The notes beneath the pieces are model-generated. The model saw nothing but the letters and a program-made list of their open reading frames with translations. It had not been told where the DNA came from and made no database searches. From a virus, in IMG/VR virus record IMGVR_UViG_3300001750_000002, positions 1-43,502 of that record: a DNA stretch of 43,502 nt. The stretch is one strand, 5' to 3'. Positions 12,477 through 26,646 of this stretch are shown piece by piece. Position 1 is the stretch's first letter; each line of letters opens with the position of its first letter. A program made the translations under genes and the position numbers.

Positions 12477-13856
12477 TCATATATTTTCGAGGTAGGCCAC
12501 GAACGCGTCCTGCATCGACATCTTGTCGTGGACGCGCGAAAACTTGATCTCGTCGACCGTGTTGCGTGCCATGATGTGGTGCACGAACACGCCGTCGGCG
12601 TTCTGCTGGCCCTGTCGGGCGAGCCTACGGATAAGTTGGTCGTAATACTCGGCCGACCACGGCAGCGCGAATAGCGCCAGGTGATGACCGCCGGCCTGCA
12701 TGTTGAGCCCGTGACCGGCGGACGCGGGGTGTACGGCCATGATCGGATAATCGCCTGCGTTCCAGCGTTCGACATGCCGATCGGCTCTACCGTCCGGTAT
12801 TCCGGCGCCTAGATAGGGCAGATCAGGCCAACAGGTGCGCAGGACAGCCAGATCGGCTTTGAATTGGTAGCCGACCAGCAAGCGCTCGCCGCCGCCCAAG
12901 CCCTCTATCAGCTCGTGCAGCGCGTCGATCTTCTCACGGTGAAGTGTCTCGACGACTTCGCCATCCTCATAGATGAACCCTTGCGCGATTTGCTCGAGCT
13001 TGCTGGAGGCGACGGCTTGGTTGGCAGCCAGTACAATGTCGTTCTCACTCAACGGGGCAAATAGATGGCGTTCCATCTTGTCGTAAGCCGCACGCGCGGC
13101 TGCCGGCAGATCGACCCATATTTTGAGCGTTTCGGCATGCACGCTCGGCACTTCGGACGGGTCGACCGTGAACGATATTTTGGCGGCATCAGCGTTGAGA
13201 ATGTCCGCGCGCTCCGAGTGGATCGACCAATTGTAGCCGGCCCAATCGGTTTGCCAGAAATTCCGTGCGCGCCAAGCATAGAAGCTCTTGCCCCACAGTT
13301 CACCGTCGGTGAGCAGTTTCAAGGGCGTGAACTGGTCGAGCAAGCCGTTTGGCGCCGGCGTTCCCGTTAAACCCCATCGGTTCTTGAACCGCCCAATGAG
13401 TTTGAAGAGCGCCTTGGCGCGCTTGCCCGTGGGGTTTTTGAACCGGGATAACTCGTCAATTACGAGTAAGTCGAATATCGTATCGGCGCGCTCGAATTTC
13501 TCTAGCGCGCCACAGAGCCACACGACATTGTCGATCCCGCATACGACGATACCGTGACGTGTCGCGGCTAGATCGTACTCGCGCTTTGTCGGCGCGCCGG
13601 ACAGTACGGTAACAGGCAAACCAGTCAAATGTGCCCACTCGTCGACCTCTTTCGGCCACACGAGATTGCACACCCGTTTCGGGGCGATCACGAGCGCCTG
13701 CCGGATCTCGCCGGCATCGATCAGCTCCTTGATGGCGGTCATAGCGCATACGGTTTTGCCGCTCCCCATGCACATTACGGCCTGTACAACCGAGCTCTCA
13801 TACAAGCGATCGACGGCGCGGTTTTGGTACTCGTGCAGATCGGCGTATCCGCGCAT
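12477..13856 (-). CDS. SNF2-family (SF2) DNA helicase
   Basis: Walker A MCMGSGKT, DExx box LLVIDELS, WGLTGTPAPNG, and a C-terminal lobe with HPASAGHGLNMQ and RRLARQGQ. Confidence 0.85.
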   Translation of the reverse strand: MRGYADLHEYQNRAVDRLYESSVVQAVMCMGSGKTVCAMTAIKELIDAGEIRQALVIAPKRVCNLVWPKEVDEWAHLTGLPVTVLSGAPTKREYDLAATRHGIVVCGIDNVVWLCGALEKFERADTIFDLLVIDELSRFKNPTGKRAKALFKLIGRFKNRWGLTGTPAPNGLLDQFTPLKLLTDGELWGKSFYAWRARNFWQTDWAGYNWSIHSERADILNADAAKISFTVDPSEVPSVHAETLKIWVDLPAAARAAYDKMERHLFAPLSENDIVLAANQAVASSKLEQIAQGFIYEDGEVVETLHREKIDALHELIEGLGGGERLLVGYQFKADLAVLRTCWPDLPYLGAGIPDGRADRHVERWNAGDYPIMAVHPASAGHGLNMQAGGHHLALFALPWSAEYYDQLIRRLARQGQQNADGVFVHHIMARNTVDEIKFSRVHDKMSMQDAFVAYLENI

Positions 13857-14356
13857 TATACGTGCCTCCAGTTCGCGCGATAGATCACGCCGGTGATTGC
13901 ACCGCGGCTCACACCATACTGTTTAGCAAGTCGGGTTTGAGACATAGAGCGCGCGGCCCACAGACGGCGGATAGCGAGCACATCGACCTCAGTCAGCCGC
14001 GCACTCGCGTTCAACTCGCCGCATTGAGGACGTGTGCGCTTCTTATGCGCCATGTCGGCCATGTTTTCAGCATTCGTCGCTGCGAATAAATGAGCCGGCC
14101 GCACACAAGCTCGATTATCGCATCGATGACAGACAAGTTGGCCGTCAGGGATAGGCTCAATTTCAAGTTCATACGCGACACGGTGTGCTCGCACATTACG
14201 TCCGTTAAGCCAAAACTGGCCGTAGCCGGATCCGTCTAATCCGGTCTTCCATCCCCAACAGCCATGTTCAGCCTTGTTGACCTTCGACCAAAACCGTTCT
14301 GCGACCGTTAGCTTAGATGCATCTGTCATATCGGTGGCCTTAGCTGGTGAGCGCAT
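13856..14356 (-). CDS. HNH homing endonuclease (HNH_3-type) with C-terminal HTH
   Basis: Reads GCWGWKTGLDGSGYGQFWLNGRNVRAHRVAYELEIEPIPDGQLVCHRCDNRACVRPAHLFAATNAENM. The C-terminal SQTRLAKQYGVSRGAITGV is HTH-like. Its stop overlaps the SNF2 start (TAATG). Confidence 0.8.
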   Translation of the reverse strand: MRSPAKATDMTDASKLTVAERFWSKVNKAEHGCWGWKTGLDGSGYGQFWLNGRNVRAHRVAYELEIEPIPDGQLVCHRCDNRACVRPAHLFAATNAENMADMAHKKRTRPQCGELNASARLTEVDVLAIRRLWAARSMSQTRLAKQYGVSRGAITGVIYRANWRHV

Positions 14357-14459
14357 GGCGCATGAATTGCGCCGTGAGCTCGTCTTCGAAGACGCCGATC
14401 AGGGCGGCAGCGATAAAGCACGCCGCGGCAACAGACCACCAAATCGTATGAAATATCAT
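14340..14459 (-). CDS. possible 39-aa membrane peptide
   Basis: Hand-read sequence MIFHTIWWSVAAACFIAAALIGVFEDELTAQFMRHALTS. Overlaps the HNH start by 17 nt. Weak support. Confidence 0.25.
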   Translation of the reverse strand: MIFHTIWWSVAAACFIAAALIGVFEDELTAQFMRHALTS

Positions 14460-14543
14460 CGGTTTCTCTTGCCTCTTGAGTTTTGTCCCCGACTTCCGCG
14501 CGGTCGCCGGCACGCCCTGTCGGACGTCGTGTTCTAAATGTTT

Positions 14544-14750
14544 CTAGAGGTTCAGCTCATTGTCTTCGATGACAGCAATAAATGCGTCGACCTCTTCTTC
14601 GATTACCTGGAAATGGAAACGACCATCATCCGTGAGACCGCGGCCCACGCTCGAGCCTTCTGCGGCGACCATTGCGCGCAACTTGCCTTTTGCCTCCTCC
14701 CAGAGCGTCGCTTTAGCGAGACCGATCACATCGTTACACTCTCTAGTCAT
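14544..14750 (-). CDS. hypothetical protein
   Basis: 68-aa ORF co-oriented in the leftward operon. No motifs recognised. Confidence 0.5.
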   Translation of the reverse strand: MTRECNDVIGLAKATLWEEAKGKLRAMVAAEGSSVGRGLTDDGRFHFQVIEEEVDAFIAVIEDNELNL

Positions 14751-14777
14751 AACATTCTCCGTATGCGTTTGAGTACT

Positions 14778-15230
14778 CTAAGCGTCGTTCGCTGCCGTGC
14801 CGGCTGCGAAGCGCGCGATCGCCAGCGGATCGATGATCGGCTCCGGTTCTTTGTCAACCGTCGCCTGCAGACGATCCTGCAGCATGCTGAACACGGTGAA
14901 ACGCTCGGCGTAAGTCATGGCTGTCGATCGGCACAGGAGAGCATAGACGTTGACCATGTCCTCGCGAGCGCGGTTGTTCAGCGGGATCAGGCTTTCCATG
15001 ACGCGCTCGACCGTGTCACGGTCGTTGTGGATCAAGAGCGCGGAGATCAATCCGTCTTCGTTTGCCCGGTAGCAAACGGTCATAGCGCGTTGATCGTGAT
15101 AGCCGCCCGAATAGGCGAACGCAGACGAACCAAAGTTGTCCGCGTCAACCGCCAGGTCGCGGTTGACGCTGTCGCAACACGTGCCGTTGTCGTGAAGCCG
15201 TTTTAGAATGTCGCTGACGATATGGGGCAT
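14778..15230 (-). CDS. hypothetical protein
   Basis: ATG 15230 (MPHIVSDILKRL...) is preceded by ACAGGAGA. In frame with track ORF 14778-15278. 150 aa. Confidence 0.55.
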   Translation of the reverse strand: MPHIVSDILKRLHDNGTCCDSVNRDLAVDADNFGSSAFAYSGGYHDQRAMTVCYRANEDGLISALLIHNDRDTVERVMESLIPLNNRAREDMVNVYALLCRSTAMTYAERFTVFSMLQDRLQATVDKEPEPIIDPLAIARFAAGTAANDA

Positions 15231-15281
15231 GTTCGTGTCTCCTGTTGTGTTACCTTTTATATAGGCTTTACGAGGCACTTG

Positions 15282-15422
15282 TCAAGACCCTTTTGGAGCG
15301 AGTATGCATAACCCTATTGCGACACCGGCCCAGGTAGCGGCCACGGCGATCTCACCTTGGAGCAGACATCCAATAGCGGCTAGATAAAGCATCCCAAGCG
15401 CTAACTGGACAGAAGCGCTCAT
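15282..15422 (-). CDS. possible small membrane protein (46 aa)
   Basis: ATG 15422 overlaps the upstream stop (ATGA). MSASVQLALGMLYLAAIGCLLQGEIAVAATWAGVAIGLCILAPKGS has two hydrophobic helices. Confidence 0.35.
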   Translation of the reverse strand: MSASVQLALGMLYLAAIGCLLQGEIAVAATWAGVAIGLCILAPKGS

Positions 15423-15799
15423 TCGGCGGCCTTTCCGAAATCGGGGTGCTTGTTTTTCATGTGTGCCGCCAGCTGTTTGAAGGTCCGGTTGCAGCACGGA
15501 CACACGCCGGCCTTGCTGCGGTTTCTCAGCTTCGTAACCTGTCCGTGCGCAGCGGCCTTCTCCCGCTTCAAGCGGATTATGTCGTCATCCATCTGTGCCA
15601 TAAGCTGTTTCAGTCGGTCGCGCTCCTGCCGAATGGCGTCGGCGCGCTTCTTCTCTTCACCGGTTCTGAAACCGCGGCTATGGCCGTTCGGACAAGTCCA
15701 ATAGCCGCCCTCTTCGACTGCGTTGTCGTACATCGCTTTAGGGATGGCGTGCTCGACGCCGCACGTACCGCACTGAATACGGGTAAGGGCAATGGACAT
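15419..15799 (-). CDS. zinc-finger protein with central coiled coil
   Basis: N-terminal CGTCG...CPNGH and C-terminal CPCCNRTFKQLAAHMKNKH (C2H2-like). The start overlaps the stop of the polymerase N-fragment (TGATG; an alternative GTG lies at 15802). Confidence 0.6.
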   Translation of the reverse strand: MSIALTRIQCGTCGVEHAIPKAMYDNAVEEGGYWTCPNGHSRGFRTGEEKKRADAIRQERDRLKQLMAQMDDDIIRLKREKAAAHGQVTKLRNRSKAGVCPCCNRTFKQLAAHMKNKHPDFGKAAE

Positions 15800-17004
15800 C
15801 ACGTAACCTCCAATTCATTGATCATCTCGATCGCTTCGGCCTCGTGCTCGCCGAGCGATTTGCGCGGCAGGTTGTGCGTCTGCACGCCTTTCGACGAATA
15901 GCGTCCGGTTTGCATGGCGCCGTTGAACACGTATTGCCCGCACAGCCGGCCGGCCGGATCGACCTGGTCGAGCATCTTGGCGAATTTCTTCGGGCTCGAC
16001 GACGCGCCGAACTGGCGCAGCTCGAGCAAGGTCGCGACCGCGATCTCGTCGTCGGTCAGACCGTCGTTGGTTTCCTCGAGCGCGTCATAGTAGGCGAGCA
16101 GCGCTTCGACCCGGGGCCGTTCGGCCGAGAGCTTGGCCGCAACGACCTCGTTCTCGTCGTCTTCGTCATACCGCGACACGAGCATGTCGCGCGCTTCGGC
16201 CGATCCGACATTATCGTAAAGCCATTCAGCAATCTTGACGTGCTGCATGATCGTCTTGAGCGCACCACCCGTGAGTCCGGGCAACATGGCATTCGTGCGC
16301 GTCCGATCGGCCTCGGCGATTTGCGCGGCGCGGCGCGCGAAGTCGACGTCGACCGCGATACCGCGGTCATTGATCCGTTCCGATGCCCAGTACTCGGCCC
16401 ATTCCGACGCCGGCAACGGCCGTGTGGCCTTCCATATGTCGCGCAAGAGCTCGGTGTCGCGCACGCCGTAGCCGATATATTCCTGCCACTCAGCGGGTGC
16501 CTCATCGGGCTGGGGGCCCTCAGGAGAAGCAAAGAGCTTCATCAGGCCCTTGCCGCGCTTGTCCTTGCCACCGAGCCCCAGGACCGTCCCGGCGTCCTCC
16601 AGACCCCCCGGCAGGTTCGACGCGGCGCCTTGCGCCATGGCATCGAGCGTCATTTCCGGCGTGAGTTCGGGAAAAGTGGGCTGGCTGTTCCAAATCTGCC
16701 GGTCGAAACCCATGTTCCAAGCGACGAACCACGCCTCACCGGCGGCGGCGCGCTTGTGGAATTGGCGCACTCGCGGGTTCAGATGCTTCCATTCGACATC
16801 GTAGTGACCGAACCGTGCGGCATAGGTCGCATCGACCGGTTCATCGCCGATCGTGTAGGTCCATATGACGGCCTCGGCGGTCGGCGCATAGGCATAGGCG
16901 CCGCACTTGGTTACGTCGTCGTAAGGCGGCAGCGTGCCGGGTAGCGGCCGCGTCTCGCTGTCGAGGAAGCAATAATCGTTAATGTCGTCTGAGAGATAGG
17001 TCAT
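15799..17004 (-). CDS. family-A DNA polymerase, N-terminal fragment (3'-5' exonuclease + thumb)
   Basis: ATG 17004 (MTYLSDDINDY...) is preceded by GGAAGG; the track's 17109 start is a GTG. ExoI CFLDSET, ExoII WNMGFD, ExoIII YGVRD, then GAMQTGRYSSKGVQTHNLPR (equivalent to TGRLSS..PNLQNIP of Pol I). Stops after ...AIEMINELEVT, before motif A. Confidence 0.85.
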   Translation of the reverse strand: MTYLSDDINDYCFLDSETRPLPGTLPPYDDVTKCGAYAYAPTAEAVIWTYTIGDEPVDATYAARFGHYDVEWKHLNPRVRQFHKRAAAGEAWFVAWNMGFDRQIWNSQPTFPELTPEMTLDAMAQGAASNLPGGLEDAGTVLGLGGKDKRGKGLMKLFASPEGPQPDEAPAEWQEYIGYGVRDTELLRDIWKATRPLPASEWAEYWASERINDRGIAVDVDFARRAAQIAEADRTRTNAMLPGLTGGALKTIMQHVKIAEWLYDNVGSAEARDMLVSRYDEDDENEVVAAKLSAERPRVEALLAYYDALEETNDGLTDDEIAVATLLELRQFGASSSPKKFAKMLDQVDPAGRLCGQYVFNGAMQTGRYSSKGVQTHNLPRKSLGEHEAEAIEMINELEVT

Positions 17005-17130
17005 GACGCGCGCCTTCCGATGCGAGGAGGCGGGGTCGACACCGCTTTGCCTGCCGAACAGACTGCTGGTATCGACCCCGTCGAAGTCCGGTATCGGCTT
17101 AGGGACCACCGAACTTCTAAGCAGCCGCTC

Positions 17131-17913
17131 CTACGCGGCGGGACGCCGACGATGGCGACGGACCGGGGTGGCGTCACCAGTCGTCGTTTTCTCCGGCGCG
17201 GCCTTCTGAGCGGGACTGGGGGCAGTCTCTTCGCTCTCGGGCTCGACCGGCGGCTTTTCCACCGGCGCAGGCTCGGTCGCCTGTTCCATGGCCTCGCTGG
17301 CATCTTCGGCGAGCGGAGCCCATTTCTTGATCAGAAAGACCGGGTTGTAGGTCTTCCCGTATTTCGGGTGCTGATAGTCGTCGTTCTGCAATGCGACCAA
17401 CGGGATCGGATTGCCCGGATCCTTGTCGAGCTGCGACATGACGGCACCGATCAGGTTCTTGACCGCGGCAGTGCCACCGAAACTGGTCGTGTTGTAGAGC
17501 GTCTGCACGCCGGTGTCCTCACCGCTCATACACTGCAGAGGAAAGCTGTATTGCTCCCGCCAGTCGCACGTATTCCCGTCATCATCGTGATAGACGGGCA
17601 GCGTTGCGCGCTCCGGGAGCGGCTGAGACGATGACACCATGACATCGCCTTTCTTCTCGTTTTTCTTCTTGTCGTAATTGGTCCAACAACAAAAACCGTG
17701 CTGCAGCGACATGATGTTGATCGCCCACAATGAGCCGTCCTGCACGTCGACATTGTCGGCGCCATAGACCCACATGCCATCGGTCTGCATGCGCATGAAT
17801 GGGTCCGTGTTCGACGACGGCATCGTCTTGGTGACGTTCGCCAGGCCTTGCTTGAGGCCTGACAGCGCCGCGACAGCGCCGCCGGCAGCTTGTGTCTGCA
17901 CTTCGTTTGACAT
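17131..17913 (-). CDS. replication-module protein, possibly ssDNA-binding (DUF2815-like position); function uncertain
   Basis: 260 aa with an AGGAAA RBS. Sits between the Cas4-like nuclease and the polymerase, as SSB-like genes do in nuclease/SSB/PolA/primase modules. Has a Pro/Glu-rich C-terminal linker and a basic end (RRHRRRPAA). Confidence 0.55.
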   Translation of the reverse strand: MSNEVQTQAAGGAVAALSGLKQGLANVTKTMPSSNTDPFMRMQTDGMWVYGADNVDVQDGSLWAINIMSLQHGFCCWTNYDKKKNEKKGDVMVSSSQPLPERATLPVYHDDDGNTCDWREQYSFPLQCMSGEDTGVQTLYNTTSFGGTAAVKNLIGAVMSQLDKDPGNPIPLVALQNDDYQHPKYGKTYNPVFLIKKWAPLAEDASEAMEQATEPAPVEKPPVEPESEETAPSPAQKAAPEKTTTGDATPVRRHRRRPAA

Positions 17914-18092
17914 AGTTCGGTTTCCTATTTCGGTTACAGGTTAATGCGGCAGGTTGGACGTTACCCCAACTAGGCCCTACGCTCCCGAACGCATGGGTGA
18001 TGAATTTGGAGTTCACCACTACCCTTTATTTTGCAGCCAGGCTTCCCATTCGGTCCACCTCATGTGTCTACTTTCCACATCGCTGCCGCAGT

Positions 18093-18194
18093 ATGGCGCG
18101 GCTAAGGTCTATCCGCGCCATGAGCCCGAAGGCTTCGCCGGTTCCTCTTAGGGGAGGTTCACCCGGGCCGGCACCCGGGGGCCTTGCAACGGCC
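18093..18194 (-). other. cluster of five consecutive stem-loops in a ~290-bp non-coding gap of the leftward operon
   Basis: ATGGCGCGG-11 nt-CCGCGCCAT (18093-18121; 9 bp perfect). AGCC-CGAA-GGCT (18123-18134; a UUCG loop on the transcribed strand). CCTC-6 nt-GAGG (18144-18157). CCCGGG-CCGGCA-CCCGGG (18162-18179). GGCC-7 nt-GGCC (18180-18194). Confidence 0.4.
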
Positions 18195-18206
18195 GCTAAA
18201 CCGTCG

Positions 18207-18383
18207 CTAAGAGGGTAGTTTTTTCGTCGGTGACGAATGTATCGAGCACAACGTCGACCATGTTTCATGAGTACACAAACTCTCAGGCGTGACCAGAACG
18301 CGTGTCGCTGTTCCGTCCAGGAAACTCTCATAAGAAATGAATTTCCCGCACTCATCGCATTTGTTCCACGTTTGCTGGGTCAT
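18207..18383 (-). CDS. possible small Cys-rich protein (58 aa)
   Basis: Hand-read. ATG 18383 is preceded by GGGAGA. Sequence MTQQTWNKCDECGKFISYESFLDGTATRVLVTPESLCTHETWSTLCSIHSSPTKKLPS, stop TAG. Third-position GC is only about 54%. Confidence 0.35.
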   Translation of the reverse strand: MTQQTWNKCDECGKFISYESFLDGTATRVLVTPESLCTHETWSTLCSIHSSPTKKLPS

Positions 18384-18404
18384 GTCTCTATCTCCCGTAT
18401 CTAT

Positions 18405-18572
18405 CTAGTACCCAAGATGTTCGCGCGCCTGCTCGATCGACCAACCCGTCACGTCGATCATGTCGAACCCGTAAACGCCGTCGAGCATGTAGTCGGCCTT
18501 GGCCCAGACACGGCCGACGCGGACGGTGATTTCAACGGAGTGGTTTTCGAGGTAGGAGATAAGGGCTTTCAT
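18405..18572 (-). CDS. hypothetical protein (55 aa)
   Basis: Hand-read. ATG 18572 is preceded by ACAGGAAACA. Sequence MKALISYLENHSVEITVRVGRVWAKADYMLDGVYGFDMIDVTGWSIEQAREHLGY. Confidence 0.45.
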   Translation of the reverse strand: MKALISYLENHSVEITVRVGRVWAKADYMLDGVYGFDMIDVTGWSIEQAREHLGY

Positions 18573-18655
18573 GATACTGTTTCCTGTTTCCGATCTCTTT
18601 TACTGTACTCTTTATATAGTCCTTATCGAGTTACTTTGCAAGAGGCTTATGCGGT

Positions 18656-19912
18656 TTATTCGGCGGCCGCTTCTGCCAGCTTCTCTGCGAGCTCCTGCAC
18701 TTCCGCACCCGGCGTATAGACCGGCGCCTTAGAACCGTCACGTACGAGCTTAGTGCCGGTCACTCGGCGCTCGACATACTTCTCGGGGATTTCCTTGAGC
18801 CGGCCCTTGCGGGCTTTCAGGATCTTGTCGACAGATGCCGGCGTGATCAACTTGCGCGGCGCCGCGGCGTCGTATTTCATGCGCATGGACGTGCGCAGCC
18901 ATTTCGTGGTCGCTTCCTCGTCGATCCAGGCGCGGTTCGACAGCGACTGCGTGAGATACCAGCCAGGCACCGAACCAGCCTGGTTGTACTCCAGATCGTG
19001 CGCCAGCTTGTGCGCAGCGTTGCTCAGCTCTTTGAGATCGTCCAGCAGATCGATGATCTGAGCCAGTCGCTCACCGCTTAACAGATCGGAGCCATCAGGG
19101 GGTGCCGTGTAAGCGGTTTCTATGTCGTATCGCGCGTCCGGCAAATCATCCAAGAGCGCGCCATAGGCCGGACACAGTGGTTTGCCCTTGCAGTAACGGC
19201 ACGCGGGGCCCTTGGCGAATGTCGGCGCGTCGGAGCCGATCGCCTCGGAATATTTCGCAACCAGCCGCATGCGGAACGCCTCGAGCGCGCCGGCTGTGGT
19301 TGACCAGCGTTTGAGCACCGGATCGGGCTGCGGCTGCACGATAATGATCTCGACCGGCCAGTCGTCGCCCTCGCCGAACATGTCGGGGCGTGTGTGCTGC
19401 GCCGCGCGGCCGTAATAGAGGCCTTGTGCGTTCTCGACCGGATCGACTTCGTTGAAACCGAATTTCCAGTCGAGAATGACGGTGCGCTGATCGGTTCGGC
19501 CGATCAGGTCGGACGTGCCGAAACTGTCGGGGATGCCGGGCATCTCGACCTGTGTCTCAACAAGAAAGCTGAGACCGCCTTCGTGTTCACACAGATCGCA
19601 GAAATTATCGAACGCCTCCAGCGCCGGCGCGATAGTGTCGCGGTAATCATCGTACGATATGACGCGCCCATAGAATTCTTGACCGATCACAACTTCAGGA
19701 TCTTCAGGGTCATAGTTCACGAGCTCGGCCATCGCCTCGTGCAGCGCCGTGCCACGGTCGGCGGCTTCGTTGCTCTCTTCCGGCGCGTTCGGCATGGCGG
19801 CCTTCAGATCGCGCAACAGGTTGTACGATCCCGGGCATTGGATGATCTGTGCGGCGCTTGAGCCGCCAACCGTAGTCGAGTGGGCGGCGGGCGTGGCGGT
19901 GCGTTCGTTCAT
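18656..19912 (-). CDS. PD-(D/E)XK nuclease with Cas4-like four-Cys cluster (DUF2800-like)
   Basis: N-terminal GGSSAAQIIQCPGSYNL, catalytic-type SDLIGRT...VILDWKFG, and C-terminal CRYCKGKPLCPAY (C-x2-C-x5-C, plus the N-terminal Cys). 418 aa. Confidence 0.8.
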   Translation of the reverse strand: MNERTATPAAHSTTVGGSSAAQIIQCPGSYNLLRDLKAAMPNAPEESNEAADRGTALHEAMAELVNYDPEDPEVVIGQEFYGRVISYDDYRDTIAPALEAFDNFCDLCEHEGGLSFLVETQVEMPGIPDSFGTSDLIGRTDQRTVILDWKFGFNEVDPVENAQGLYYGRAAQHTRPDMFGEGDDWPVEIIIVQPQPDPVLKRWSTTAGALEAFRMRLVAKYSEAIGSDAPTFAKGPACRYCKGKPLCPAYGALLDDLPDARYDIETAYTAPPDGSDLLSGERLAQIIDLLDDLKELSNAAHKLAHDLEYNQAGSVPGWYLTQSLSNRAWIDEEATTKWLRTSMRMKYDAAAPRKLITPASVDKILKARKGRLKEIPEKYVERRVTGTKLVRDGSKAPVYTPGAEVQELAEKLAEAAAE

Positions 19913-19940
19913 GTCTAAGTCTCCCTGTTACGATTTAGTT

Positions 19941-20156
19941 TTACGGGTTAAGGTAATAGCCTGTGGCCTGACGACCCGCCGCCTTGTCATCGTCGCTGTC
20001 CTCGTCCACGATTTCAGCGTTTTCGATAATGAAAACGACAAGATTTTCCAGAGCTTCGGCAACCTCATAAACGTCGATCTGGCTGCCCGGTGTATTATCG
20101 TGAAAAGACCGCGTCATCCACGTCAACTCTTCGACCTGTCGCTTTGTGAGTTTCAT
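19941..20156 (-). CDS. hypothetical acidic protein
   Basis: 71 aa with an AGGGAA RBS. Acidic run EIVDEDSDDDK. Confidence 0.55.
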   Translation of the reverse strand: MKLTKRQVEELTWMTRSFHDNTPGSQIDVYEVAEALENLVVFIIENAEIVDEDSDDDKAAGRQATGYYLNP

Positions 20157-20179
20157 GTCTCGGTTTCCCTGTTCGGTTC

Positions 20180-20392
20180 TTAGCTATCGTATCTGTCCGC
20201 CTCCGGCGCACGGTGATCGGGCACGTACGTGTGAATGAGCGTCTCGACCAGCTCCGACATGGTCACGCCGGTGTAGCGCGATGCCGCGCGCAGCTTATCG
20301 TGAGCCTCGGTCGACAAGGCCACGTTGAACCGTTTCGGCTTGTCCGCATGATGCGTTTTCATTTTGTCCAGATCGAGCATGGCCTTCGACAT
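20180..20392 (-). CDS. ribbon-helix-helix (CopG/Arc-like) DNA-binding protein; first gene of the leftward arm
   Basis: KRFNVALSTEAHDKLRAASRYTGVTMSELVETLI fits a beta-strand/helix/helix RHH fold pattern. GAGGA RBS. Lies next to the divergent promoter region. Confidence 0.7.
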   Translation of the reverse strand: MSKAMLDLDKMKTHHADKPKRFNVALSTEAHDKLRAASRYTGVTMSELVETLIHTYVPDHRAPEADRYDS

Positions 20393-20420
20393 TGCGTATC
20401 GTCCTCGCAGTGACTAGAAT
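20392..20420 (+). promoter_or_regulatory. candidate sigma70-type promoter for the rightward arm
   Basis: TTGCGT (20392-20397), 17 nt, TAGAAT (20415-20420). AGGAGA/AAGGG RBS and ATG 20447 lie downstream. Confidence 0.35.
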
Positions 20421-20436
20421 GTGTCGCGTAATAGGA

Positions 20437-20465
20437 GATATAAGGGATGACTCTCGAATTGTCAA
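20437..20465 (-). promoter_or_regulatory. candidate sigma70-type promoter for the leftward arm
   Basis: On the minus strand: TTGACA (20465-20460), exactly 17 nt, TATATC (20442-20437). The -35 lies inside the first codons of the VRR-NUC gene. It crosses the rightward promoter. Confidence 0.4.
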
Positions 20466-20740
20466 TAGAGGACTATCTCATAGCACGCATAAAGACGCTA
20501 GGCGGTACCGCTAAAAAAGTCACTTACAAAGGTTGTAGAGGCGCACCAGACCGCTTAGTTATACTTCCAGGTGGTCGCATCGTATTCGTTGAACTAAAGC
20601 GGCCTAAAGGTGGCCGCTTGAGCGAAGGGCAGCGCGTTGAGATAAGACTACTCAGCGGCTTAGGTGCCGAGGTTCATGTGTTAAGAACTCGAGAGGAGGT
20701 TGACGATGTGTTCGGACTGGATGAAAAAATTCAAGTCTAA
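20447..20740 (+). CDS. VRR-NUC domain nuclease
   Basis: GAPDRLVILPGGRIVFVELKRPKGGRLSEGQRVEIRLLSGLGAEVHV shows a PD...ExK core and matches the VRR-NUC pattern. 97 aa. Confidence 0.8.
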   Translation: MTLELSIEDYLIARIKTLGGTAKKVTYKGCRGAPDRLVILPGGRIVFVELKRPKGGRLSEGQRVEIRLLSGLGAEVHVLRTREEVDDVFGLDEKIQV

Positions 20741-21152
20741 TATCAACTTCGACGGACCGAGTGACTGTTGGCTGTGGACTGGAACCAAAGACCGCGACGG
20801 TTACGGCAAATTCCATGCCCCTAACGGCACAGGAGGCGCGCACCGCGCGGCCTTTGAGTTGTGGGAAGGGCCAATCCCAAAGGGCCTACATATCGACCAT
20901 CTATGCAGAGTGCCTAACTGTGTCAATCCTGCGCATATGGAGCCTGTCACTCCCGCAGAGAACTGTCGGCGCGGGTATCACGCTACTAAAACTCACTGTA
21001 AGCACGGCCATAAGTACACAGCCGATAACCTGCAGCGTAACAAGGCCGGTATACGCATGTGTAAAACTTGTAGCAGAGAACGTGCCAGGGCCTGGCATAA
21101 AAAGGATAAGCTCGAACGACAGCGCAGAGAACAAGAAAAGTACGGGCCATGA
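20706..21152 (+). CDS. HNH homing endonuclease (HNH_3-type)
   Basis: ATG 20706 follows GAGAGGAGG (20691-20699); the track start at 20700 is TTG. Reads SDCWLWTGTKDRDGYGKFHAPNGTGGAHRAAFELWEGPIPKGLHIDHLCRVPNCVNPAHMEPVTPAENCRRG. Its RBS and first 35 nt lie inside the VRR-NUC gene. Confidence 0.8.
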   Translation: MCSDWMKKFKSNINFDGPSDCWLWTGTKDRDGYGKFHAPNGTGGAHRAAFELWEGPIPKGLHIDHLCRVPNCVNPAHMEPVTPAENCRRGYHATKTHCKHGHKYTADNLQRNKAGIRMCKTCSRERARAWHKKDKLERQRREQEKYGP

Positions 21153-21352
21153 CCGGTTGGAAATTCGACGCGCAAAAGCTTGTGGCCGATCTCGAGGCGG
21201 CTGGCCACCGCACGTCCGTCAAGGCCGCCGGCAATACGGTCTATCTTGCCCAAGTCGCGACCGGTCTGCGCACTCTAGGCATGGGTGAGTTCCTGGCAAT
21301 GAGCTGGCTGGCCGGTTGGGCGCCGGCACGATATATCATAGAGGTAAAGTGA
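21149..21352 (+). CDS. hypothetical protein
   Basis: 67 aa. ATGA overlap upstream and TGATG overlap downstream. Confidence 0.5.
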   Translation: MTGWKFDAQKLVADLEAAGHRTSVKAAGNTVYLAQVATGLRTLGMGEFLAMSWLAGWAPARYIIEVK

Positions 21353-21624
21353 TGCAAATATGGAAATTCTTTGTCCAATCGAACTGTGAAATAGATATGC
21401 CTGCGGACGCTGAAATCGTAGAGGTCGGTGCTCAAAATAACGACATATGTATATGGGCGGTCGTCGATCCATGGGCCCATACGGTGACGAGACAGTTTGA
21501 CGTTATCGGTACCGGACACGAGTTTCGCGATGTACCTCAGCACACTCTTAAATACTTAGGGACAGCACATTTAGAAACTGACGGATGGGTGTTCCACGTA
21601 TTCGAAAAGGTAGCATCCGCATAG
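21352..21624 (+). CDS. conserved phage hypothetical protein (DUF7352-like)
   Basis: ATG 21352 is in frame with track ORF 21316-21624. MQIWKFFVQSNCEIDMPADAEIVEVGAQNNDICIWAVVDP...FDVIGTGHEF...YLGTAHLETDGWVFHVFE resembles a widespread small phage family as I recall it. Confidence 0.55.
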   Translation: MQIWKFFVQSNCEIDMPADAEIVEVGAQNNDICIWAVVDPWAHTVTRQFDVIGTGHEFRDVPQHTLKYLGTAHLETDGWVFHVFEKVASA

Positions 21625-21752
21625 AACACGGCCGCCGGATCCGATCAAGGCATCCAGCGACTGTTTCAGTTCAGGCTTGGGGCGCCCCTAAGCATCCTTA
21701 CGGGTAGCTCCAACCCTCACGCAAAGGGCTGTCGAAAAAGACGCCCCAATTC

Positions 21753-22430
21753 CTAAAAACGGAACCGGAAACCGATCTCCGCGTTGTGGCTGTCGACATG
21801 GCCAAGGCTAGCGCCGGCGACCGTCACGTCTTCATACCGTCGAAAACGGTAGCCGACCGACAGCGCCGTGGTCTCAGTCAGATCGATCGTGACACCGGCC
21901 ATGCCCTGCCAAGCGAATGCCGTCTCGCTGATCGGACCAACGGCAATCAAGGTCATGCCGGCGCCGGCGCCGATATAGGGCGTGAGATCGGTCGAGTTCT
22001 CAAGGTCGATGAACGCATTGGCGAACACGCCGGGCGTCCACACGTTGATGTCGGCCCCGCCGATGTCCAGCGCATTGTAGCCGACCGTCGCCTCGATCTC
22101 AGCGCGGAACATGCCGAGGTCGTAGCCAACTTGTGCGGCGCCCAGACCGCCGATCTCGTCTCGAACACCACCGCCGATATCGACATCCGCCAACCACTGC
22201 GCACCGCCACCGACACCGACGTAGAAGCCGCTGTCGCTCTTAGCCGTTTCAAGTCGCGGAACCTCCCAATCAGCCGCGTTAGCGGAATATGACATTGCAG
22301 TGATCGCACCGACGACAAACAGGCCGGTGAGCAAAGTCAGAGCGAAAGTGCCGATCACTGTAAGGCCGGTGACCAGAAATGAGGAGGCGTCACGGGGCCG
22401 AAGGCCCGGTTTTTCGAACATTTTGCGCAT
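21753..22430 (-). CDS. outer-membrane beta-barrel protein (OMP_b-brl / Omp25-OmpX-Lom-like), moron
   Basis: ATG 22430 (MRKMFEK...) follows AGGAG; the track start at 22469 is in frame. Long signal-like N-terminus ending ...AMSYSANA|ADW. Alternating strands FYVGVGGG, AQVGYDL, FRAEIEATVGY, GVFANAFIDL, PYIGAGAGMT, AWQGMAGVTIDL, LSVGYRFRR. C-terminal ...AEIGFRFRF. Opposite strand to all its neighbours. Confidence 0.8.
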   Translation of the reverse strand: MRKMFEKPGLRPRDASSFLVTGLTVIGTFALTLLTGLFVVGAITAMSYSANAADWEVPRLETAKSDSGFYVGVGGGAQWLADVDIGGGVRDEIGGLGAAQVGYDLGMFRAEIEATVGYNALDIGGADINVWTPGVFANAFIDLENSTDLTPYIGAGAGMTLIAVGPISETAFAWQGMAGVTIDLTETTALSVGYRFRRYEDVTVAGASLGHVDSHNAEIGFRFRF

Positions 22431-22477
22431 TGATGATCTCCTGATATTGAAAAACGCATGGTACTTCACATAGCACC

Positions 22478-22506
22478 TTGCCAGACACTTTACATATCAC
22501 TATGTT
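22478..22506 (+). promoter_or_regulatory. candidate promoter for 22535 and downstream genes
   Basis: TTGCCA (22478-22483), 17 nt, TATGTT (22501-22506). Confidence 0.3.
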
Positions 22507-22519
22507 GAGGAGAATGCAA
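22491..22519 (-). promoter_or_regulatory. candidate promoter for the OMP moron
   Basis: On the minus strand: TTGCAT (22519-22514), 17 nt, TATGTA (22496-22491). Interleaved with the plus-strand candidate. Confidence 0.3.
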
Positions 22520-22534
22520 TAAGGGAACTAAACA

Positions 22535-22900
22535 ATGACATGGTCTTTCGACAACCCAGAATTCATTATCACCGGTGACGGCGTCGAACGGCTCACAGCC
22601 ACGATGCAGTTGGTTCCGAACTTTAAGGCTAAGGGGTGGTGCATCAGTAAAAACCGGTTTGTCATGTTTTGGGCGGAGCATCAAGAGATGACGCCGTTTC
22701 CTGTTCTCATGGGGCCAAAGGATTGCGCAGCGATCGTTATCCATTGGTTAAAGGACGCGGACTACGGCTCCATCCCGGACATCGATGGCGATGTGATAGC
22801 GGGTTGGCGCTGTTATACTGAAAGCTGGGGGCACATCGAAAATTTCGGCTACCAAGCGTTTCTGGCAGTCCATCCGTACTACACGCTATACGGTAAATAG
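22535..22900 (+). CDS. hypothetical protein
   Basis: 121 aa, RBS AAGGGA. No motifs recognised. GC is visibly lower than in the structural genes. Confidence 0.55.
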   Translation: MTWSFDNPEFIITGDGVERLTATMQLVPNFKAKGWCISKNRFVMFWAEHQEMTPFPVLMGPKDCAAIVIHWLKDADYGSIPDIDGDVIAGWRCYTESWGHIENFGYQAFLAVHPYYTLYGK

Positions 22901-22922
22901 AAAACAACAAGGGAGCTAGACA

Positions 22923-23369
22923 ATGGCACGCACGACACTGCAACGCTGCAATGAAATCGATAAACGCGTAAAGAAAGCCTCTGACATACTCATAGGCGCT
23001 AGACTGGGCAAGGAATGGAGTGTTCTTTTTGAGCTGTGTAGCGCGTTGCACGAAGTCACGGCCGTTCTACGGTCGGGCGGTGAACCGAAAGCTTACAACA
23101 AAATCGAGCCGCACGAATTTGCCGCTGCTATAGGGCTGGCCAAAGCGTTTGGCGTCTGCTGGAAATGCGGCGAACAAGAGGAGCATCCTCTACACCAGAC
23201 CGTAACGTCGGGCTTCGTGCGCGTCTATACAACCGAGCGCCAGAACACTGTGCTTTTAGTCAACGGAACGGTCCTTGCCGAGGGCGATGCGGCCAAATTC
23301 GGACGTAAGTTTGCCAAGATCGCGACACGGTTGTCCGAGGAACTGGGCCTGGATTTGGTGAGAGGCTGA
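22923..23369 (+). CDS. hypothetical protein
   Basis: 148 aa, RBS AAGGGAG. A CWKCG motif is the only feature. Confidence 0.55.
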   Translation: MARTTLQRCNEIDKRVKKASDILIGARLGKEWSVLFELCSALHEVTAVLRSGGEPKAYNKIEPHEFAAAIGLAKAFGVCWKCGEQEEHPLHQTVTSGFVRVYTTERQNTVLLVNGTVLAEGDAAKFGRKFAKIATRLSEELGLDLVRG

Positions 23370-23372
23370 ACA

Positions 23373-23789
23373 ATGCAGCGACGTAAATTCTTGGCTTTCA
23401 TGGCCGCCGGCCCGGTTGCAGCAAAAGCTGCGGCGGACAAAGTTGCTTTGGGGCATATGGGGATCAGCACCACAGGTCTCGCCGATCCGATCGATCAACC
23501 CTGTACGAGCGGCAGCGAGACAGAAGACGGCATTAAAACGCTGGATTGGCTACGTGCACACGGCATCCCTGAGTGGCGTATGGAGGATATCGAGAAAGAA
23601 GCTAAATTTGTGCGTGCGCTAGATCCTGATCTAGCCTGCAATAAATCGATGTCTCTTGCGGCAAAAATCTACAGCCAGCGCGACCGCCAGCTCGCGCGAC
23701 TGATCGACGAAGAAACCAGTTTGCGCATGCGCAACAGAGCGCGCGACGCTTGGCTTAAGAAAGCTGGCATGAGCTGGTGGTCGTGGTGA
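23373..23789 (+). CDS. hypothetical protein with twin-arginine (Tat) signal peptide
   Basis: MQRRKFLAFMAAGPVAAKAAADK has the RRxFL motif, a short h-region and an AxA-type site (AAA). 138 aa. Confidence 0.6.
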   Translation: MQRRKFLAFMAAGPVAAKAAADKVALGHMGISTTGLADPIDQPCTSGSETEDGIKTLDWLRAHGIPEWRMEDIEKEAKFVRALDPDLACNKSMSLAAKIYSQRDRQLARLIDEETSLRMRNRARDAWLKKAGMSWWSW

Positions 23790-24679
23790 TCTCCTACTAC
23801 AACGAAAATGACCCGTTCGCGGCGCAATGGCTGCGCAATCTCATAGCAGAAAACCTCATTCCGGAAGGTGACGTGGATGACCGATCGATCGAAGACGTGC
23901 AGCCCGGCGATCTCGTCGGATACCGGCAGTGCCATTTCTTCGCCGGCATCGCCGGGTGGCCGCTCGCTCTCGCGCTCGCCGGATGGCCCGAAGATAGAGA
24001 AGTATGGACCGGATCCTGTCCCTGTCAGCCGCTTTCGGGCGCCGGACAAAAACGGGGCGCTCAGGACAAGCGTCACCTTTGGCCAGTGTTTTGCGGTCTC
24101 ATTGCGGAGCGCCGTCCTGCAGCGGTCTTTGGAGAACAGGTTGCGAGCCCGCTTGGACGTGAATGGCTCGCCGGAGTACGTCTTGACCTGGAAGCATTGG
24201 GATATGCCTGCGGGGCGGCCGATCTGTGCGCTGCGGGCGTCGCGGCGCCGCACCTCAGGCAACGGTTGTGGTTTGGAGCTAAAAACATGGCCGACACCAA
24301 TGGCCGGAACGCCAGCTCAGAACGGCTACAACGGAGCAGGCAACACGGACAGCTTACGAAAAACAATTGCGTTGTTAAAGGATTGGGCGACGCCGAGAGC
24401 GAGGGACTGCGAGAACAACGGAGTGAGTATCGCCCGAGCGGCGAAAGGTGTCGCGGACTCGTTGGATTTGCAGCGCAAATTGGTGTGCCTCAATGGAATG
24501 GACCGACCGTCGCCGTTGAGTGCTCGGATGGGTGGCGCCGCGTATCCTCTCAACCCGACGCATTTCCTATGGCTCATGGGGTACAGCAAAGAGGTGGCAA
24601 GTTGCGCGCCTACGGCAACGCGATCTGCCCGCCGCTCGCCAAAGAGTTCATAGAGGCGTTCATGGAGTGTTCAACATGA
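23777..24679 (+). CDS. DNA (cytosine-5) methyltransferase (see finding on the second overlapping frame 23868-24653)
   Basis: FFAGIAGW (motif I-like), GSCPCQPLSGAG (PCQ, motif IV), RHLWP, FGEQV (ENV-like, motif VI), APHLRQRLWF (motif VIII), LRAYGNAICPPLAKEFI (motif X). The start is uncertain: GTG at 23777, 23783 or 23786, the last forming a GTGA overlap with the upstream stop. Confidence 0.75.
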   Translation: MVVVISYYNENDPFAAQWLRNLIAENLIPEGDVDDRSIEDVQPGDLVGYRQCHFFAGIAGWPLALALAGWPEDREVWTGSCPCQPLSGAGQKRGAQDKRHLWPVFCGLIAERRPAAVFGEQVASPLGREWLAGVRLDLEALGYACGAADLCAAGVAAPHLRQRLWFGAKNMADTNGRNASSERLQRSRQHGQLTKNNCVVKGLGDAESEGLREQRSEYRPSGERCRGLVGFAAQIGVPQWNGPTVAVECSDGWRRVSSQPDAFPMAHGVQQRGGKLRAYGNAICPPLAKEFIEAFMECST

Positions 24680-25116
24680 AGACGTGCACGGGTTGCGGCA
24701 CAACAAAAACAGTCGATCAGTACCACGCCGACAAGAGGCGTAAAGACGGTAAACTCGCGCGCTGTAAAGATTGCAGACGTATCGAAACGAACGCATACCG
24801 AAAAAGGGTTGGATACGACCGCATCAGATATCGACGTACCGCGCCGCAAGAACGCGAGCGGCATCTGATCAGAAAATACGGCGTCACTCAAGCCGATTAC
24901 GATCACATGCTCTCAGCCCAAGGGGGCGGCTGCGCCATATGTAGCCGAAAGCAAAATCACGCTCTGGACGTTGACCACTGTCACGCTACCGGTAATGTTC
25001 GAGGGTTGCTGTGCACAAACTGCAACCGTCTTCTAGGGCACGCTCACGATGACATTGCGCGCCTGATCGCCGCAGCGCGCTATCTTATTTCATCTCGTAA
25101 GGAGACGCGAAAATGA
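24676..25116 (+). CDS. endonuclease VII-like (T4 gp49-family) nuclease, probable free-standing homing endonuclease
   Basis: ATG 24676 (ATGA overlap with the MTase stop) is in frame with track ORF 24520-25116. N-terminal Zn ribbon CTGCG...CKDC. Core GGCAICSRKQNHALDVDHCHATGNVRGLLCTNCNRLLG. Confidence 0.8.
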   Translation: MKTCTGCGTTKTVDQYHADKRRKDGKLARCKDCRRIETNAYRKRVGYDRIRYRRTAPQERERHLIRKYGVTQADYDHMLSAQGGGCAICSRKQNHALDVDHCHATGNVRGLLCTNCNRLLGHAHDDIARLIAAARYLISSRKETRK

Positions 25117-26087
25117 CCGCGCTCGACAACGCTTTTCTCGATCGCTTTGCCGAGTTCGGCCCGGTGTCGAGAAACCTCAGCTGGCTGATCCGCCCCGCGC
25201 TGGTCGCGGGGCCCGGAAGAACATTAATTTGGGGGGATTTCAGCTCTATTGAGGCGCGCGTGCTGCCGTGGCTCGCGGCATCACCCGGCGGCGAGAAGGT
25301 GCTGGACGTGTTCCGCACAAACGACGCTGACCCGTCGCTGCCCGATATCTATGAGATCGAAGCCGGCAACATCTACAAATGCGATCCGAAGGAAATCGAC
25401 AAGGGACCGCGCCAGATCGGCAAGGTCGCCGTGCTGTCGCTCGGCTTCGGCGGCTCGGTCGGCGCGCTCGGTGCCATGGCGACCGGGTACGGTATCTATC
25501 TCGAGGACGATCTGAAACACGAGATCGTCGAGACCTGGCGCCAGTCGAACCCGTGGGCCCGGACATTCTGGGATGCCCTGTGGGAAGCCGCTCTGAACGC
25601 CTTGGAGAGCCCTGGAGCAGTCTTCCCAGCTGGGCGCGTCGCGTTCGTCTACGACTCCTCCTACATCCGCGGTACGCTGTTCTGCGCGCTGCCGTGCGGC
25701 CGGGTGCTGTCGTACCCGAAAATCCGGTGGGAGAAACGCGAGATCGAAGACAAGAAGACCGGCAAGACCGAGACGCGCACGCAGTTGGTTTACACCAAGG
25801 GTTACGGCCGCGCGGCGGCGTGGTTTGGCAAGTTCGCCGAGAACGTGACGCAGGCGACCGCCGGCTCGATCCTGCGCCGGACACTCGTACGGTTAAAACG
25901 GTTTGACGATGTCGTGGCGCACACGCATGACGAGATCGTACGCGAGACTGAAGATGATCCGGTCTGGATTGCGGCAGCTAAAAGCGCTCTGCGCGCTGGT
26001 ATGGAAGCAAACGACGATTGGGATGCCGGGCTGCCGCTCAAGGCGGAAGTCCTGGAGAACTGGTACTATACACAAAGCATTAAATAG
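25113..26087 (+). CDS. family-A DNA polymerase, C-terminal fragment (palm/fingers)
   Basis: Own ATG with an ATGA overlap to the endonuclease VII-like gene. Motif A LIWGDFSSIEARVL, motif B RQIGKVAVLSLGFGGSVGAL, motif C VVAHTHDEIVRE. 324 aa. Confidence 0.9.
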   Translation: MTALDNAFLDRFAEFGPVSRNLSWLIRPALVAGPGRTLIWGDFSSIEARVLPWLAASPGGEKVLDVFRTNDADPSLPDIYEIEAGNIYKCDPKEIDKGPRQIGKVAVLSLGFGGSVGALGAMATGYGIYLEDDLKHEIVETWRQSNPWARTFWDALWEAALNALESPGAVFPAGRVAFVYDSSYIRGTLFCALPCGRVLSYPKIRWEKREIEDKKTGKTETRTQLVYTKGYGRAAAWFGKFAENVTQATAGSILRRTLVRLKRFDDVVAHTHDEIVRETEDDPVWIAAAKSALRAGMEANDDWDAGLPLKAEVLENWYYTQSIK

Positions 26088-26101: not shown

Positions 26102-26581
26102 ATGCCTAGCTTAAAACAAGAATACCGCAGCACGTATGAATGTTGGGCCAACATGAAAACACGCTGCAATAACCCTAACTACGAAGCCTTCGAACGCTAC
26201 GGCGGACGTGGCATACGGGTCTGTGAGCGCTGGAACGCCAGCTTTGCGGCGTTCTTGGGAGACATGGGTCCGAAACCAGACGGTTTAACGATCGAGCGCG
26301 TCGATAACGACGGTAACTACACACCGGACAACTGTGAATGGGCCACACGGATAGCCCAAGCACGTAACCGGCGCTCGACACTGTACGCAACTGTCAACGG
26401 TGAAACGCTGTGTGCAAAAGACTGGATCGCTCGTCTCGACATATCGCCGAACGCTTTTTACACTCGCGCGCGCCGTATCGGCTGTCAGGCAGCGGTTGAG
26501 CACTATCAAGCGAAACCGAAATGGGCGCACTCACCCAGCCCGAACGAAAAAGGGATCGACCCTGGCAGCCGATCCCTTTAA
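26102..26581 (+). CDS. HNH-like endonuclease-family protein
   Basis: GRGIRVCERW...GLTIERVDNDGNYTPDNCEWATRIAQARNRR resembles the (I/V)(D/E)RIDNxxxYxPxNCRWAT..Q..N pattern of phage HNH-like proteins as I recall it. Confidence 0.55.
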   Translation: MPSLKQEYRSTYECWANMKTRCNNPNYEAFERYGGRGIRVCERWNASFAAFLGDMGPKPDGLTIERVDNDGNYTPDNCEWATRIAQARNRRSTLYATVNGETLCAKDWIARLDISPNAFYTRARRIGCQAAVEHYQAKPKWAHSPSPNEKGIDPGSRSL

Positions 26582-26646
26582 CACTGGACATCCTACCGCC
26601 TGAAAGCGGCTACAATTCCGACGGTTCCCACAGAAGGAAATTGCAC

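Follow-up and report, generated by a model that had tools for sequence, protein, structure and literature searches.

Inversion with a breakpoint in an already split DNA polymerase gene as the probable origin of opposite-strand polymerase halves in a phage replication module

Introduction

How do the two halves of one DNA polymerase come to lie on opposite strands of a phage genome? This question is raised by IMG/VR virus record IMGVR_UViG_3300001750_000002, of which positions 1 to 43,502, the whole stretch analyzed here, are called the window. With its 43.5 kb the window resembles an entire tailed-phage genome: plus-strand late genes (terminase, portal, major head, head-closure, tail protein and endolysin) run from ~29.5 kb via the window end to ~12.3 kb, and a replication module with two divergent arms is set between the late-gene ends. 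The N-terminal half of a family A DNA polymerase (PolN) is encoded on the leftward arm and the C-terminal half (PolC) on the rightward arm. An earlier reading of the sequence (the original prediction) had proposed that the segment between the halves, 15799-24675, was inverted around a divergent promoter region after a homing endonuclease gene had split the polymerase gene.

For comparison, 103 related loci (L001-L103) were fetched by alignment query; single-protein scans of viral and metagenome contig collections gave one or two loci, and a nucleotide-level search of the phage collection returned no relative. We conclude, with a probability of roughly 0.7, that the replication module of the window, of a kind conserved among phages, has a derived layout, produced by an inversion with one breakpoint in the spacer of a polymerase gene that was already split.

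Results

PolN and PolC make up one family A polymerase

Placed end to end, PolN and PolC align without loss or duplication with intact PolA (748 aa) from Nostoc phage Nsp-JY18, PolN covering residues 1 to ~460 of that protein. The exonuclease residues D50/E52, F135/D136 and Y214/D218 of PolN (motifs DxE, NxxFD and YxxxD) are invariant across 34 homologues including that of the window, and TGRYSSKGVQTHNL is present in PolN, which carries the exonuclease and motif 2. PolC contains motif A (DFSSIEAR), motif B (RQIGKVAVLSLGFGG) and motif C (HTHDE), all of which align with intact PolA. No second polymerase was seen among the large open reading frames (ORFs) of the window. PDB searches with the single PolN or PolC sequence gave no match; a match was obtained only with a profile from 14 intact relatives, which hit Klenow, Bst and Taq polymerases starting just upstream of motif A. 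Because the profile match begins there, the cut can be placed in a family-specific linker between motif 2 (TGRxSS..HNL) and motif A. PolN stops 6 aa past the last conserved helix and PolC begins 14 aa ahead of a conserved FGP. A split intein was ruled out, since these termini are too short for intein halves of ~100 and ~35 aa. With no room for an intein, the two chains would have to associate non-covalently, and PolN and PolC are predicted to work as a non-covalent heterodimer.

PolN and PolC are separate ORFs in ~35 of the 103 related loci and a single ORF in more distant ones; among the best 120 matches in the protein database, nearly all PolN homologues are ~400 aa long. All split lineages are cut within the same few residues, as tabulated from their junctions. 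In the colinear-split and opposite-strand relatives nearest the window, PolN ends in '...INELEV*' and PolC starts with 'M..LDNAFLDRFAEFGP'. Cuts at the equivalent place occur in the group of Octadecabacter Antarctic BD virus 1 (BD1 group) and in L060; their respective sisters, L023 and L072, have an intact polymerase. As a cut site the linker is permissive: at least three lineages in the trees use it, not necessarily all independently, as adjacent halves could re-fuse. The polymerase split is widespread and probably older than the inversion described below.

The spacer between PolN and PolC measures 6 nt to 6.3 kb and holds methyltransferase, metallophosphatase and small-ORF cargo. In many colinear-split relatives it contains a ~98-aa ORF (L005 12384-12680), which is found elsewhere in others; homologues occur in L010, L086, L016, L100, L011, L009, L088, L001, L012 and L015, and the ORF is missing from the window and from L004. 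Some PolC or whole-polymerase ORFs are ~300 aa longer than the rest (L100 9226-11070, L086 11759-13609, L016 12153-14168, L007 2919-4973, L049 9977-13114). The extra part begins after about PolC residue 260-275, and Pfam sees only DNA_pol_A in these proteins. The extensions may be inteins or fused endonucleases, which would make their site a second insertion hotspot of the same gene.

A reversed block lies between unreversed flanks

In protein dot plots of the window against L005, L100 and L101, the SNF2 gene, PolC, the HNH gene after PolC and the primase gene keep their order and strand, and both are reversed for VRR-NUC, the ribbon-helix-helix (RHH) gene, the Cas4-like gene, a conserved 260-aa gene and PolN. 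A reversed block between unreversed flanks is the signature of an inversion. VRR-NUC shares 48-56% identity with the gene preceding SNF2 in the colinear genomes, and the HNH protein after PolC is 67% identical to the product of an L100 ORF (11119-11529) that trails the PolC of L100, its adjacency to PolC thus being kept in a colinear genome.

Five layouts were distinguished among the relatives (strands as + and -, the divergent centre as //). In type A (SNF2-, VRR-NUC- // Cas4-like+, 260-aa+, Pol+, primase+) distant relatives have an intact polymerase, and ~19 metagenomic loci at 45-54% PolN identity have a split one (L005/L006, L100, L101, L102, L086, L003, L008, L009, L013, L016, L065 and others). 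Type B (primase-, SNF2-, VRR-NUC- // Cas4-like+, 260-aa+, Pol+) is that of the BD1 group. Type C (primase-, VRR-NUC- // Cas4-like+, 260-aa+, Pol+, SNF2+) comprises 26 loci with intact polymerase. Type D (primase-, PolC-, VRR-NUC- // Cas4-like+, 260-aa+, PolN+, SNF2+) is found in the window, L004 (the nearest, at 65% PolN identity), L098/L099, L103, L018 and L020/L021, and type E (SNF2-, 260-aa-, Cas4-like- // VRR-NUC+, Pol+, primase+) in the Nostoc phage. Each of the other types is one inversion away from type A, the inverted stretch including the divergent intergenic region and reaching from SNF2 to Pol (B), from VRR-NUC to PolC (C), from VRR-NUC to PolN (D) or from VRR-NUC to the 260-aa gene (E).

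These comparisons bear out much of the original prediction. Inverting 15799-24675 in silico gave the gene order that it had announced, with gene calls and coordinates as given there, and this un-inverted order exists: it is the split type A of the ~19 metagenomic relatives, in which SNF2 and VRR-NUC share one orientation, both lying on the minus strand, as had been expected. The dot-plot comparison that it had recommended returned the inversion signature, and the relatives do not all share the present order. Its implication that the event belonged to the window genome has to be dropped, as the other type D loci have the same layout. The conserved markers are colinear between the window and L021, and also between the window and L004 except for the methyltransferase gene, which follows PolC in L004. 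L004 is the nearest relative for all seven marker genes on both arms (48-67% identity), and because every marker gene ranks it first, both arms share one history. Since the layout is common to L004 at its distance and to four other contig lineages, the inversion is ancient and its breakpoints are not recoverable at the nucleotide level.

Directly observed are the gene identities, the split at one common site, the reversal in both order and strand, and the recurrence of the layout in other contigs; from these we infer an intramolecular inversion and its direction. The ancestral module would have read SNF2<-VRR-NUC<- // ->RHH->Cas4-like->260-aa protein->PolA->...->primase. In one large clade PolA would first have become two genes with a cargo-collecting spacer between the halves. 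An inversion with breakpoints at the VRR-NUC/SNF2 junction and in the PolN/PolC spacer would then have flipped VRR-NUC together with the RHH, Cas4-like, 260-aa and PolN genes. This would have placed PolN on the leftward arm ahead of SNF2, and PolC on the rightward arm between VRR-NUC and the primase gene. Because the flipped block includes the divergent control region, all genes still point away from the centre; judged by gene orientation, the prediction that this is so before and after the flip holds. Later, homing-type endonuclease genes, a methyltransferase gene, an outer-membrane-protein (OMP) gene and further ORFs would have filled both new junctions.

The breakpoints lie in filled intervals

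The part of the window that is demonstrably inverted is 15799-20740, from PolN to VRR-NUC. The left breakpoint lies within 13857-15798 and the right one within 20741-25112; positions 15799 and 24675, which had been taken as the ends of the inversion, are outer limits only. Both of these borders are now start/stop overlaps of coupled genes, the start of the 126-aa ORF overlapping the PolN stop (TGATG) at the left one. Save for the methyltransferase and HNH genes, the genes of the two intervals have no homologue in the related loci, and conversely the spacer ORFs of relatives have none in the window by which the breakpoints could be placed. The two HNH_3 genes find weak matches (26-42%) at other positions in relatives, and the one between SNF2 and PolN is missing at that position in L004, L098, L103 and L020. 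The methyltransferase gene changes its site as well: L013 and L065 have it in the PolN/PolC spacer, in L004 it follows PolC, and in L030 and L062 it precedes PolN.

Other type D genomes have near-direct junctions. The gap from PolN to SNF2 is 6 nt in L020 and 177 nt in L004 and holds one small ORF in L098 and L103; VRR-NUC and PolC are adjacent in L020 and have one ORF between them in L004. For this reason the 1.9 kb and 4.4 kb of filler in the window are most likely later insertions. A symmetric inversion centred on an origin was considered and rejected: the arms of the inverted block measure 4.6 versus 4.3 kb in the window and ~0.6 versus 3.6-4.6 kb in L004 and L020, and the near-symmetry of 15799-24675 is incidental because it is produced by the filler.

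The best repeat of the region is a 19-nt inverted repeat with one mismatch (14053-14071/24278-24296), which falls in both breakpoint intervals and translates to A(E/K)NMAD in the sense frames of the two genes. It was rejected as a scar, as it lies inside the intact HNH and methyltransferase ORFs; for its exact 15-mer the chance expectation is ~0.1.

Order of events and competing explanations

In neighbor-joining (NJ) trees the window and L004 grouped together in 100% of bootstrap replicates, L098 and L103 in 100%, and L018 and L020 in 94%, and all type D genomes together in 0-17%. Of the five-gene replicates, 68% gave the window and L004 a sister group made up of type A alone, and 29% one made up of type D alone. 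Fitch counts on the bootstrap trees gave 5-8 changes of arrangement for 63 genomes. Further evidence on direction comes from the VRR-NUC/SNF2 junction. In type A genomes the final VRR-NUC codons GAT GCG contain the SNF2 start (ATG CGx, 'MRKKSDL') in an out-of-frame overlap. The overlap is identical in relatives with intact PolA (L029, L030, L035) and with split PolA (L102, L101); in L100 and L086 it is 8-11 nt long and uses different codons. The colinear order is taken as ancestral because this junction was kept across intact- and split-PolA relatives, that is, never broken. In addition, type A is favoured as the first arrangement because type D is impossible with an intact gene and because the colinear splits of BD1 and L060 arose without inversion. 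Ancestry of type A, which rests on these indirect arguments, is therefore the favoured reading.

A more tentative possibility is that the module flips repeatedly about its divergent control region, with the split-polymerase spacer as a recurrent breakpoint, and that type D arose two to three times (window and L004; L098 and L103; L018 and L020). Breaks in the spacer could be concentrated there by endonuclease-induced breaks or by replication-associated recombination.

Several observations count against an inversion from colinear, already split ancestors. The NJ trees leave the relation of the opposite-strand lineages to the colinear-split clade unsettled, and parsimony alone permits the opposite-strand order as ancestral to that clade. 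The derived VRR-NUC->PolC junction of L020 also overlaps, by 17 nt as estimated from the start codon; since this shows that tight junctions can form anew, the junction argument loses some of its weight. The two borders are not paired by any inverted repeat, as the original prediction had likewise reported. Upstream of SNF2 in opposite-strand genomes no remnant of the VRR-NUC 3' end was found, the alignment scores being at shuffle level. Lastly, function as a two-piece enzyme is deduced solely from the conservation of both halves in the ~35 split relatives.

An exchange of modules would yield the same layout if co-infecting relatives whose central blocks were oppositely oriented had undergone illegitimate or short-homology recombination and swapped the downstream partners (VRR-NUC->PolC/primase and PolN->SNF2). 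The group is indeed mosaic, with at least five arrangement types and the number of changes given above, and methyltransferase and HNH genes sit at differing sites among the relatives. However, the seven marker genes of both arms point to L004 with consistent identities, neither arm appears foreign, and a single inversion with two breakpoints accounts for the pattern, so that we regard such an exchange as unlikely. It is still less probable that the inversion itself created the split by a break inside an intact polA, the colinear-split relatives having formed later by a re-inversion that trapped spacer genes. In the concatenated NJ tree the opposite-strand lineages branch as a grade at the base of the colinear-split clade, which makes parsimony indifferent and speaks for this order of events. 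Against it stand colinear splits at the same linker in lineages without opposite-strand relatives (BD1 group beside intact L023, L060 beside intact L072), from which it follows that splitting needs no inversion. The VRR-NUC/SNF2 overlap shared by intact- and colinear-split-PolA relatives argues in the same direction, and an intragenic break would have required the simultaneous gain of a stop, a ribosome-binding site and a start.

A misjoined or chimeric contig, for which no evidence was found, deserves hardly any weight: the layout recurs in five other contig lineages from different samples (L004, L098/L099, L103, L018, L020/L021), which as independent contigs argue that it is not an artefact, and translationally coupled ORFs occupy both junctions. 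We consider it equally far-fetched that the block is a programmed, reversible segment like the switches of Mu G and P1 C. Although it is centred on the divergent control region, its borders lack inverted repeats, no recombinase or invertase was seen among the listed ORFs or in ~39 ORFs scanned against family libraries (a scan that was not exhaustive), and the layout is fixed in relatives at 41-65% identity. Taken together, these comparisons favour an inversion with one breakpoint in the spacer of a polymerase gene that had been split before.

Endonuclease genes and the cause of the split

Four homing-type endonuclease genes were found within 13 kb, two HNH_3 genes (13856-14356 and 20700-21152), the EndoVII gene and the phrog_3377 HNH gene, all at junctions of conserved genes. 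EndoVII is joined to the methyltransferase gene and to PolC through ATGA start/stop overlaps. It abuts PolC, but the polymerase halves of the window are not adjacent, and no homologue of EndoVII was detected in any related locus. As no relative has a homologue and the split long predates the window genome, EndoVII cannot be named as the splitting element. Among the spacer ORFs of relatives that were examined no endonuclease was recognized: L005 has a Metallophos protein, L001 two small ORFs without match, and L013 and L065 a methyltransferase; the spacers of L100 and L101 have no Pfam annotation. Of the proposal that a homing endonuclease had already split the gene, the relative timing is supported, the split being probably older than the inversion, and EndoVII is not supported as its cause. 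That some selfish insertion first split the gene is plausible, by analogy with known cases and with the split polymerases reported for OM43 phages (PMC10580990).

Gene content and central control region

From the centre outward, the leftward arm carries the RHH gene, a 71-aa ORF, the DUF2800/Cas4-like gene, the 260-aa gene, PolN, the 126-aa Cys-rich ORF, the 166-aa ORF, HNH, SNF2 and a gene for a DUF6378 protein. The rightward arm carries VRR-NUC, HNH, the phrog_3848 ORF, the minus-strand OMP gene, three ORFs, the C5 methyltransferase gene, EndoVII, PolC, HNH and the primase/helicase gene (Table 1).

Table 1. Features of the replication module and of the intervals around the inverted block
Feature	Position	Strand	Evidence and remarks
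SNF2-family helicase	12477..13856	-	Pfam SNF2-rel_dom E=3e-19; left flank outside the inversion; downstream of PolN in the window
HNH_3 endonuclease	13856..14356	-	Pfam HNH_3 E=1e-11; lineage-specific filler in the SNF2/PolN interval
166-aa ORF	14778..15278	-	no Pfam/PHROG match; no homologue in the 103 loci; filler
126-aa Cys-rich ORF	15419..15799	-	phrog_33336 E=7e-18; no homologue in related loci
PolN, N-terminal half of family A polymerase	15799..17109	-	3'-5' exonuclease, thumb, motif 2 TGRYSS..QTHNL
Conserved 260-aa protein	17131..17913	-	phrog_9528 E=7e-16
DUF2800 / PD-(D/E)XK Cas4-like nuclease	18656..19912	-	Pfam DUF2800 (PF10926) E=6e-31, PDDEXK_1 E=1e-10
RHH protein	20180..20392	-	Pfam ParG/RHH_3 E ~3e-4, just under gathering cutoffs; tentative
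Divergent intergenic region, 54 bp	20393..20446	.	centre of the inverted block; putative divergent control region from gene orientation
VRR-NUC nuclease	20447..20740	+	Pfam VRR_NUC E=9e-5, 22.9 bits, below cutoff 23.8; first rightward gene
HNH_3 gene	20700-21152	+	filler in the VRR-NUC/EndoVII interval
phrog_3848 ORF	21316-21624	+	filler
OMP beta-barrel gene	21753-22469	-	Pfam OMP_b-brl E=5e-10; Surface_Ag_2, Opacity
Three ORFs without assigned function	22535-23789		filler upstream of the methyltransferase gene
C5 methyltransferase	23777-24679	+	filler (20700..24679)
EndoVII (endonuclease VII family)	24676..25116	+	Pfam Endonuclease_7 E=2e-23
PolC, C-terminal half of family A polymerase	25113..26087	+	Pfam DNA_pol_A E=3e-9, 36.6 bits vs cutoff 34.3
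HNH endonuclease after PolC	26102..26581	+	phrog_3377 E=1e-44
Primase/helicase	26521..29049	+	Pfam DUF5906 E=4e-10; right flank outside the inversion

Not all of the module labels first given survived. The DUF2800/Cas4-like, PolA and primase/helicase assignments do, and the SSB-like/DUF2815 label found no support in Pfam or PDB profiles: for the 260-aa protein of the window and eight homologues no DUF2815 or other Pfam match was obtained at E<=1, and no PDB profile matched. Its gene always lies between the Cas4-like gene and PolN, a position kept in nearly all relatives. In the window primase, Pfam returned DUF5906 and not VirE; the relatives show a faint Prim-Pol in addition to DUF5906.

The RHH gene is the first leftward gene, with homologues at the same position in L004, L005 and L010, and its product is likely a regulator. 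An outward-firing promoter pair had been placed at 20392-20465. Hexamers do stand there by eye, as weak overlapping candidates (plus strand TTGCGT-17-TAGAAT, 20392-20420; minus strand TTGACA-17-TATATC, 20465-20437), whereas a sigma-70 consensus scan flagged no promoter in 20393-20446. A 54-bp centre with a candidate RHH regulator would fit a regulated divergent control region.

The OMP gene lies antisense inside the rightward replication operon, with a terminator-like hairpin at 21770-21744 and a promoter-like plus-strand site at 22478-22506. Because of these three elements, PolC may be transcribed from a second rightward start. The OMP gene has the appearance of cargo acquired from a host, and this host may have been Gram-negative and possibly an alphaproteobacterium. 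The GC content of the window is lowest (0.47 vs ~0.58) at 29050-29480, between the primase gene and the late genes, where a promoter-like site also occurs on the minus strand (29239-29211); a late control region or an origin may be located there. Long antisense 'shadow' ORFs, such as 15844-16944 on the plus strand, run opposite real genes in this genome of 58% GC and give tblastn matches to relatives of up to ~176 bits, so that they could be mistaken for genes.

Discussion

The layout of the window indicates that the halves of a split essential polymerase can move to different strands and transcription units and be kept there over long evolutionary time. The linker between motif 2 and motif A is a natural, tolerated cut site in family A polymerases and could guide the design of split polymerases, and half-polymerases on opposite strands should not be annotated as pseudogenes. 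Repeated inversions that keep genes pointing outward from a control centre bear on how phage genome mosaics form. Of greatest interest to us is the possibility that the split-polymerase spacer served as a recurrent breakpoint in repeated flips of the module. In that case a selfish insertion would not only split an essential gene but also create a new place for rearrangement.

The closest isolate is Octadecabacter Antarctic BD virus 1 (MW805363; 44-50% identity), in which gp32 and gp29 are both annotated as 'DNA polymerase'. Like the window, it has PolA split at the same linker, a DUF2800 nuclease, a 260-aa-type protein, a VRR-NUC-like nuclease, SNF2 and a primase. Unlike the window, it has both halves on one strand with two small ORFs between them, and its primase gene lies on the other arm (type B). 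Split DNA polymerases are also reported to be common across the group of the OM43 phages MEP401 and MEP402 and related metagenomic genomes, where the halves are described as adjacent and colinear (PMC10580990), unlike those of the window. Our literature search found no report of phage polymerase halves on opposite strands. As a module, the window locus resembles the DUF2800-DUF2815-PolA-VirE type in its DUF2800 gene; the 260-aa gene corresponds to DUF2815 by position alone, and the primase matches DUF5906 in place of VirE.

In T4-like phages, free-standing homing endonucleases produce genes in pieces, such as the split gp43 and nrdA of Aeh1. As in the window, an essential replication enzyme is made there as two polypeptides without splicing, with endonuclease genes at or near the split; those halves are adjacent and on one strand, and the polymerase there is of family B, whereas in the window 8 kb separate the halves, which belong to opposite strands and to different operons, and the polymerase is of family A. 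The two halves of Synechocystis dnaE lie far apart on opposite strands and are healed by protein trans-splicing through a split intein. Distant opposite-strand halves are thus common to both systems, but the termini in the window leave no room for an intein. In bacterial chromosomes, origin-centred symmetric inversions produce 'X-alignments'. These share with the module repeated inversions across one central point and gene orientation kept relative to the centre, and differ from it in that the breakpoints are asymmetric in L004 and L020. Set beside these systems, the locus combines two known phenomena, the splitting of polymerase genes and the inversion of phage genome segments, in a variant that is tolerated; it does not amount to a new kind of system.

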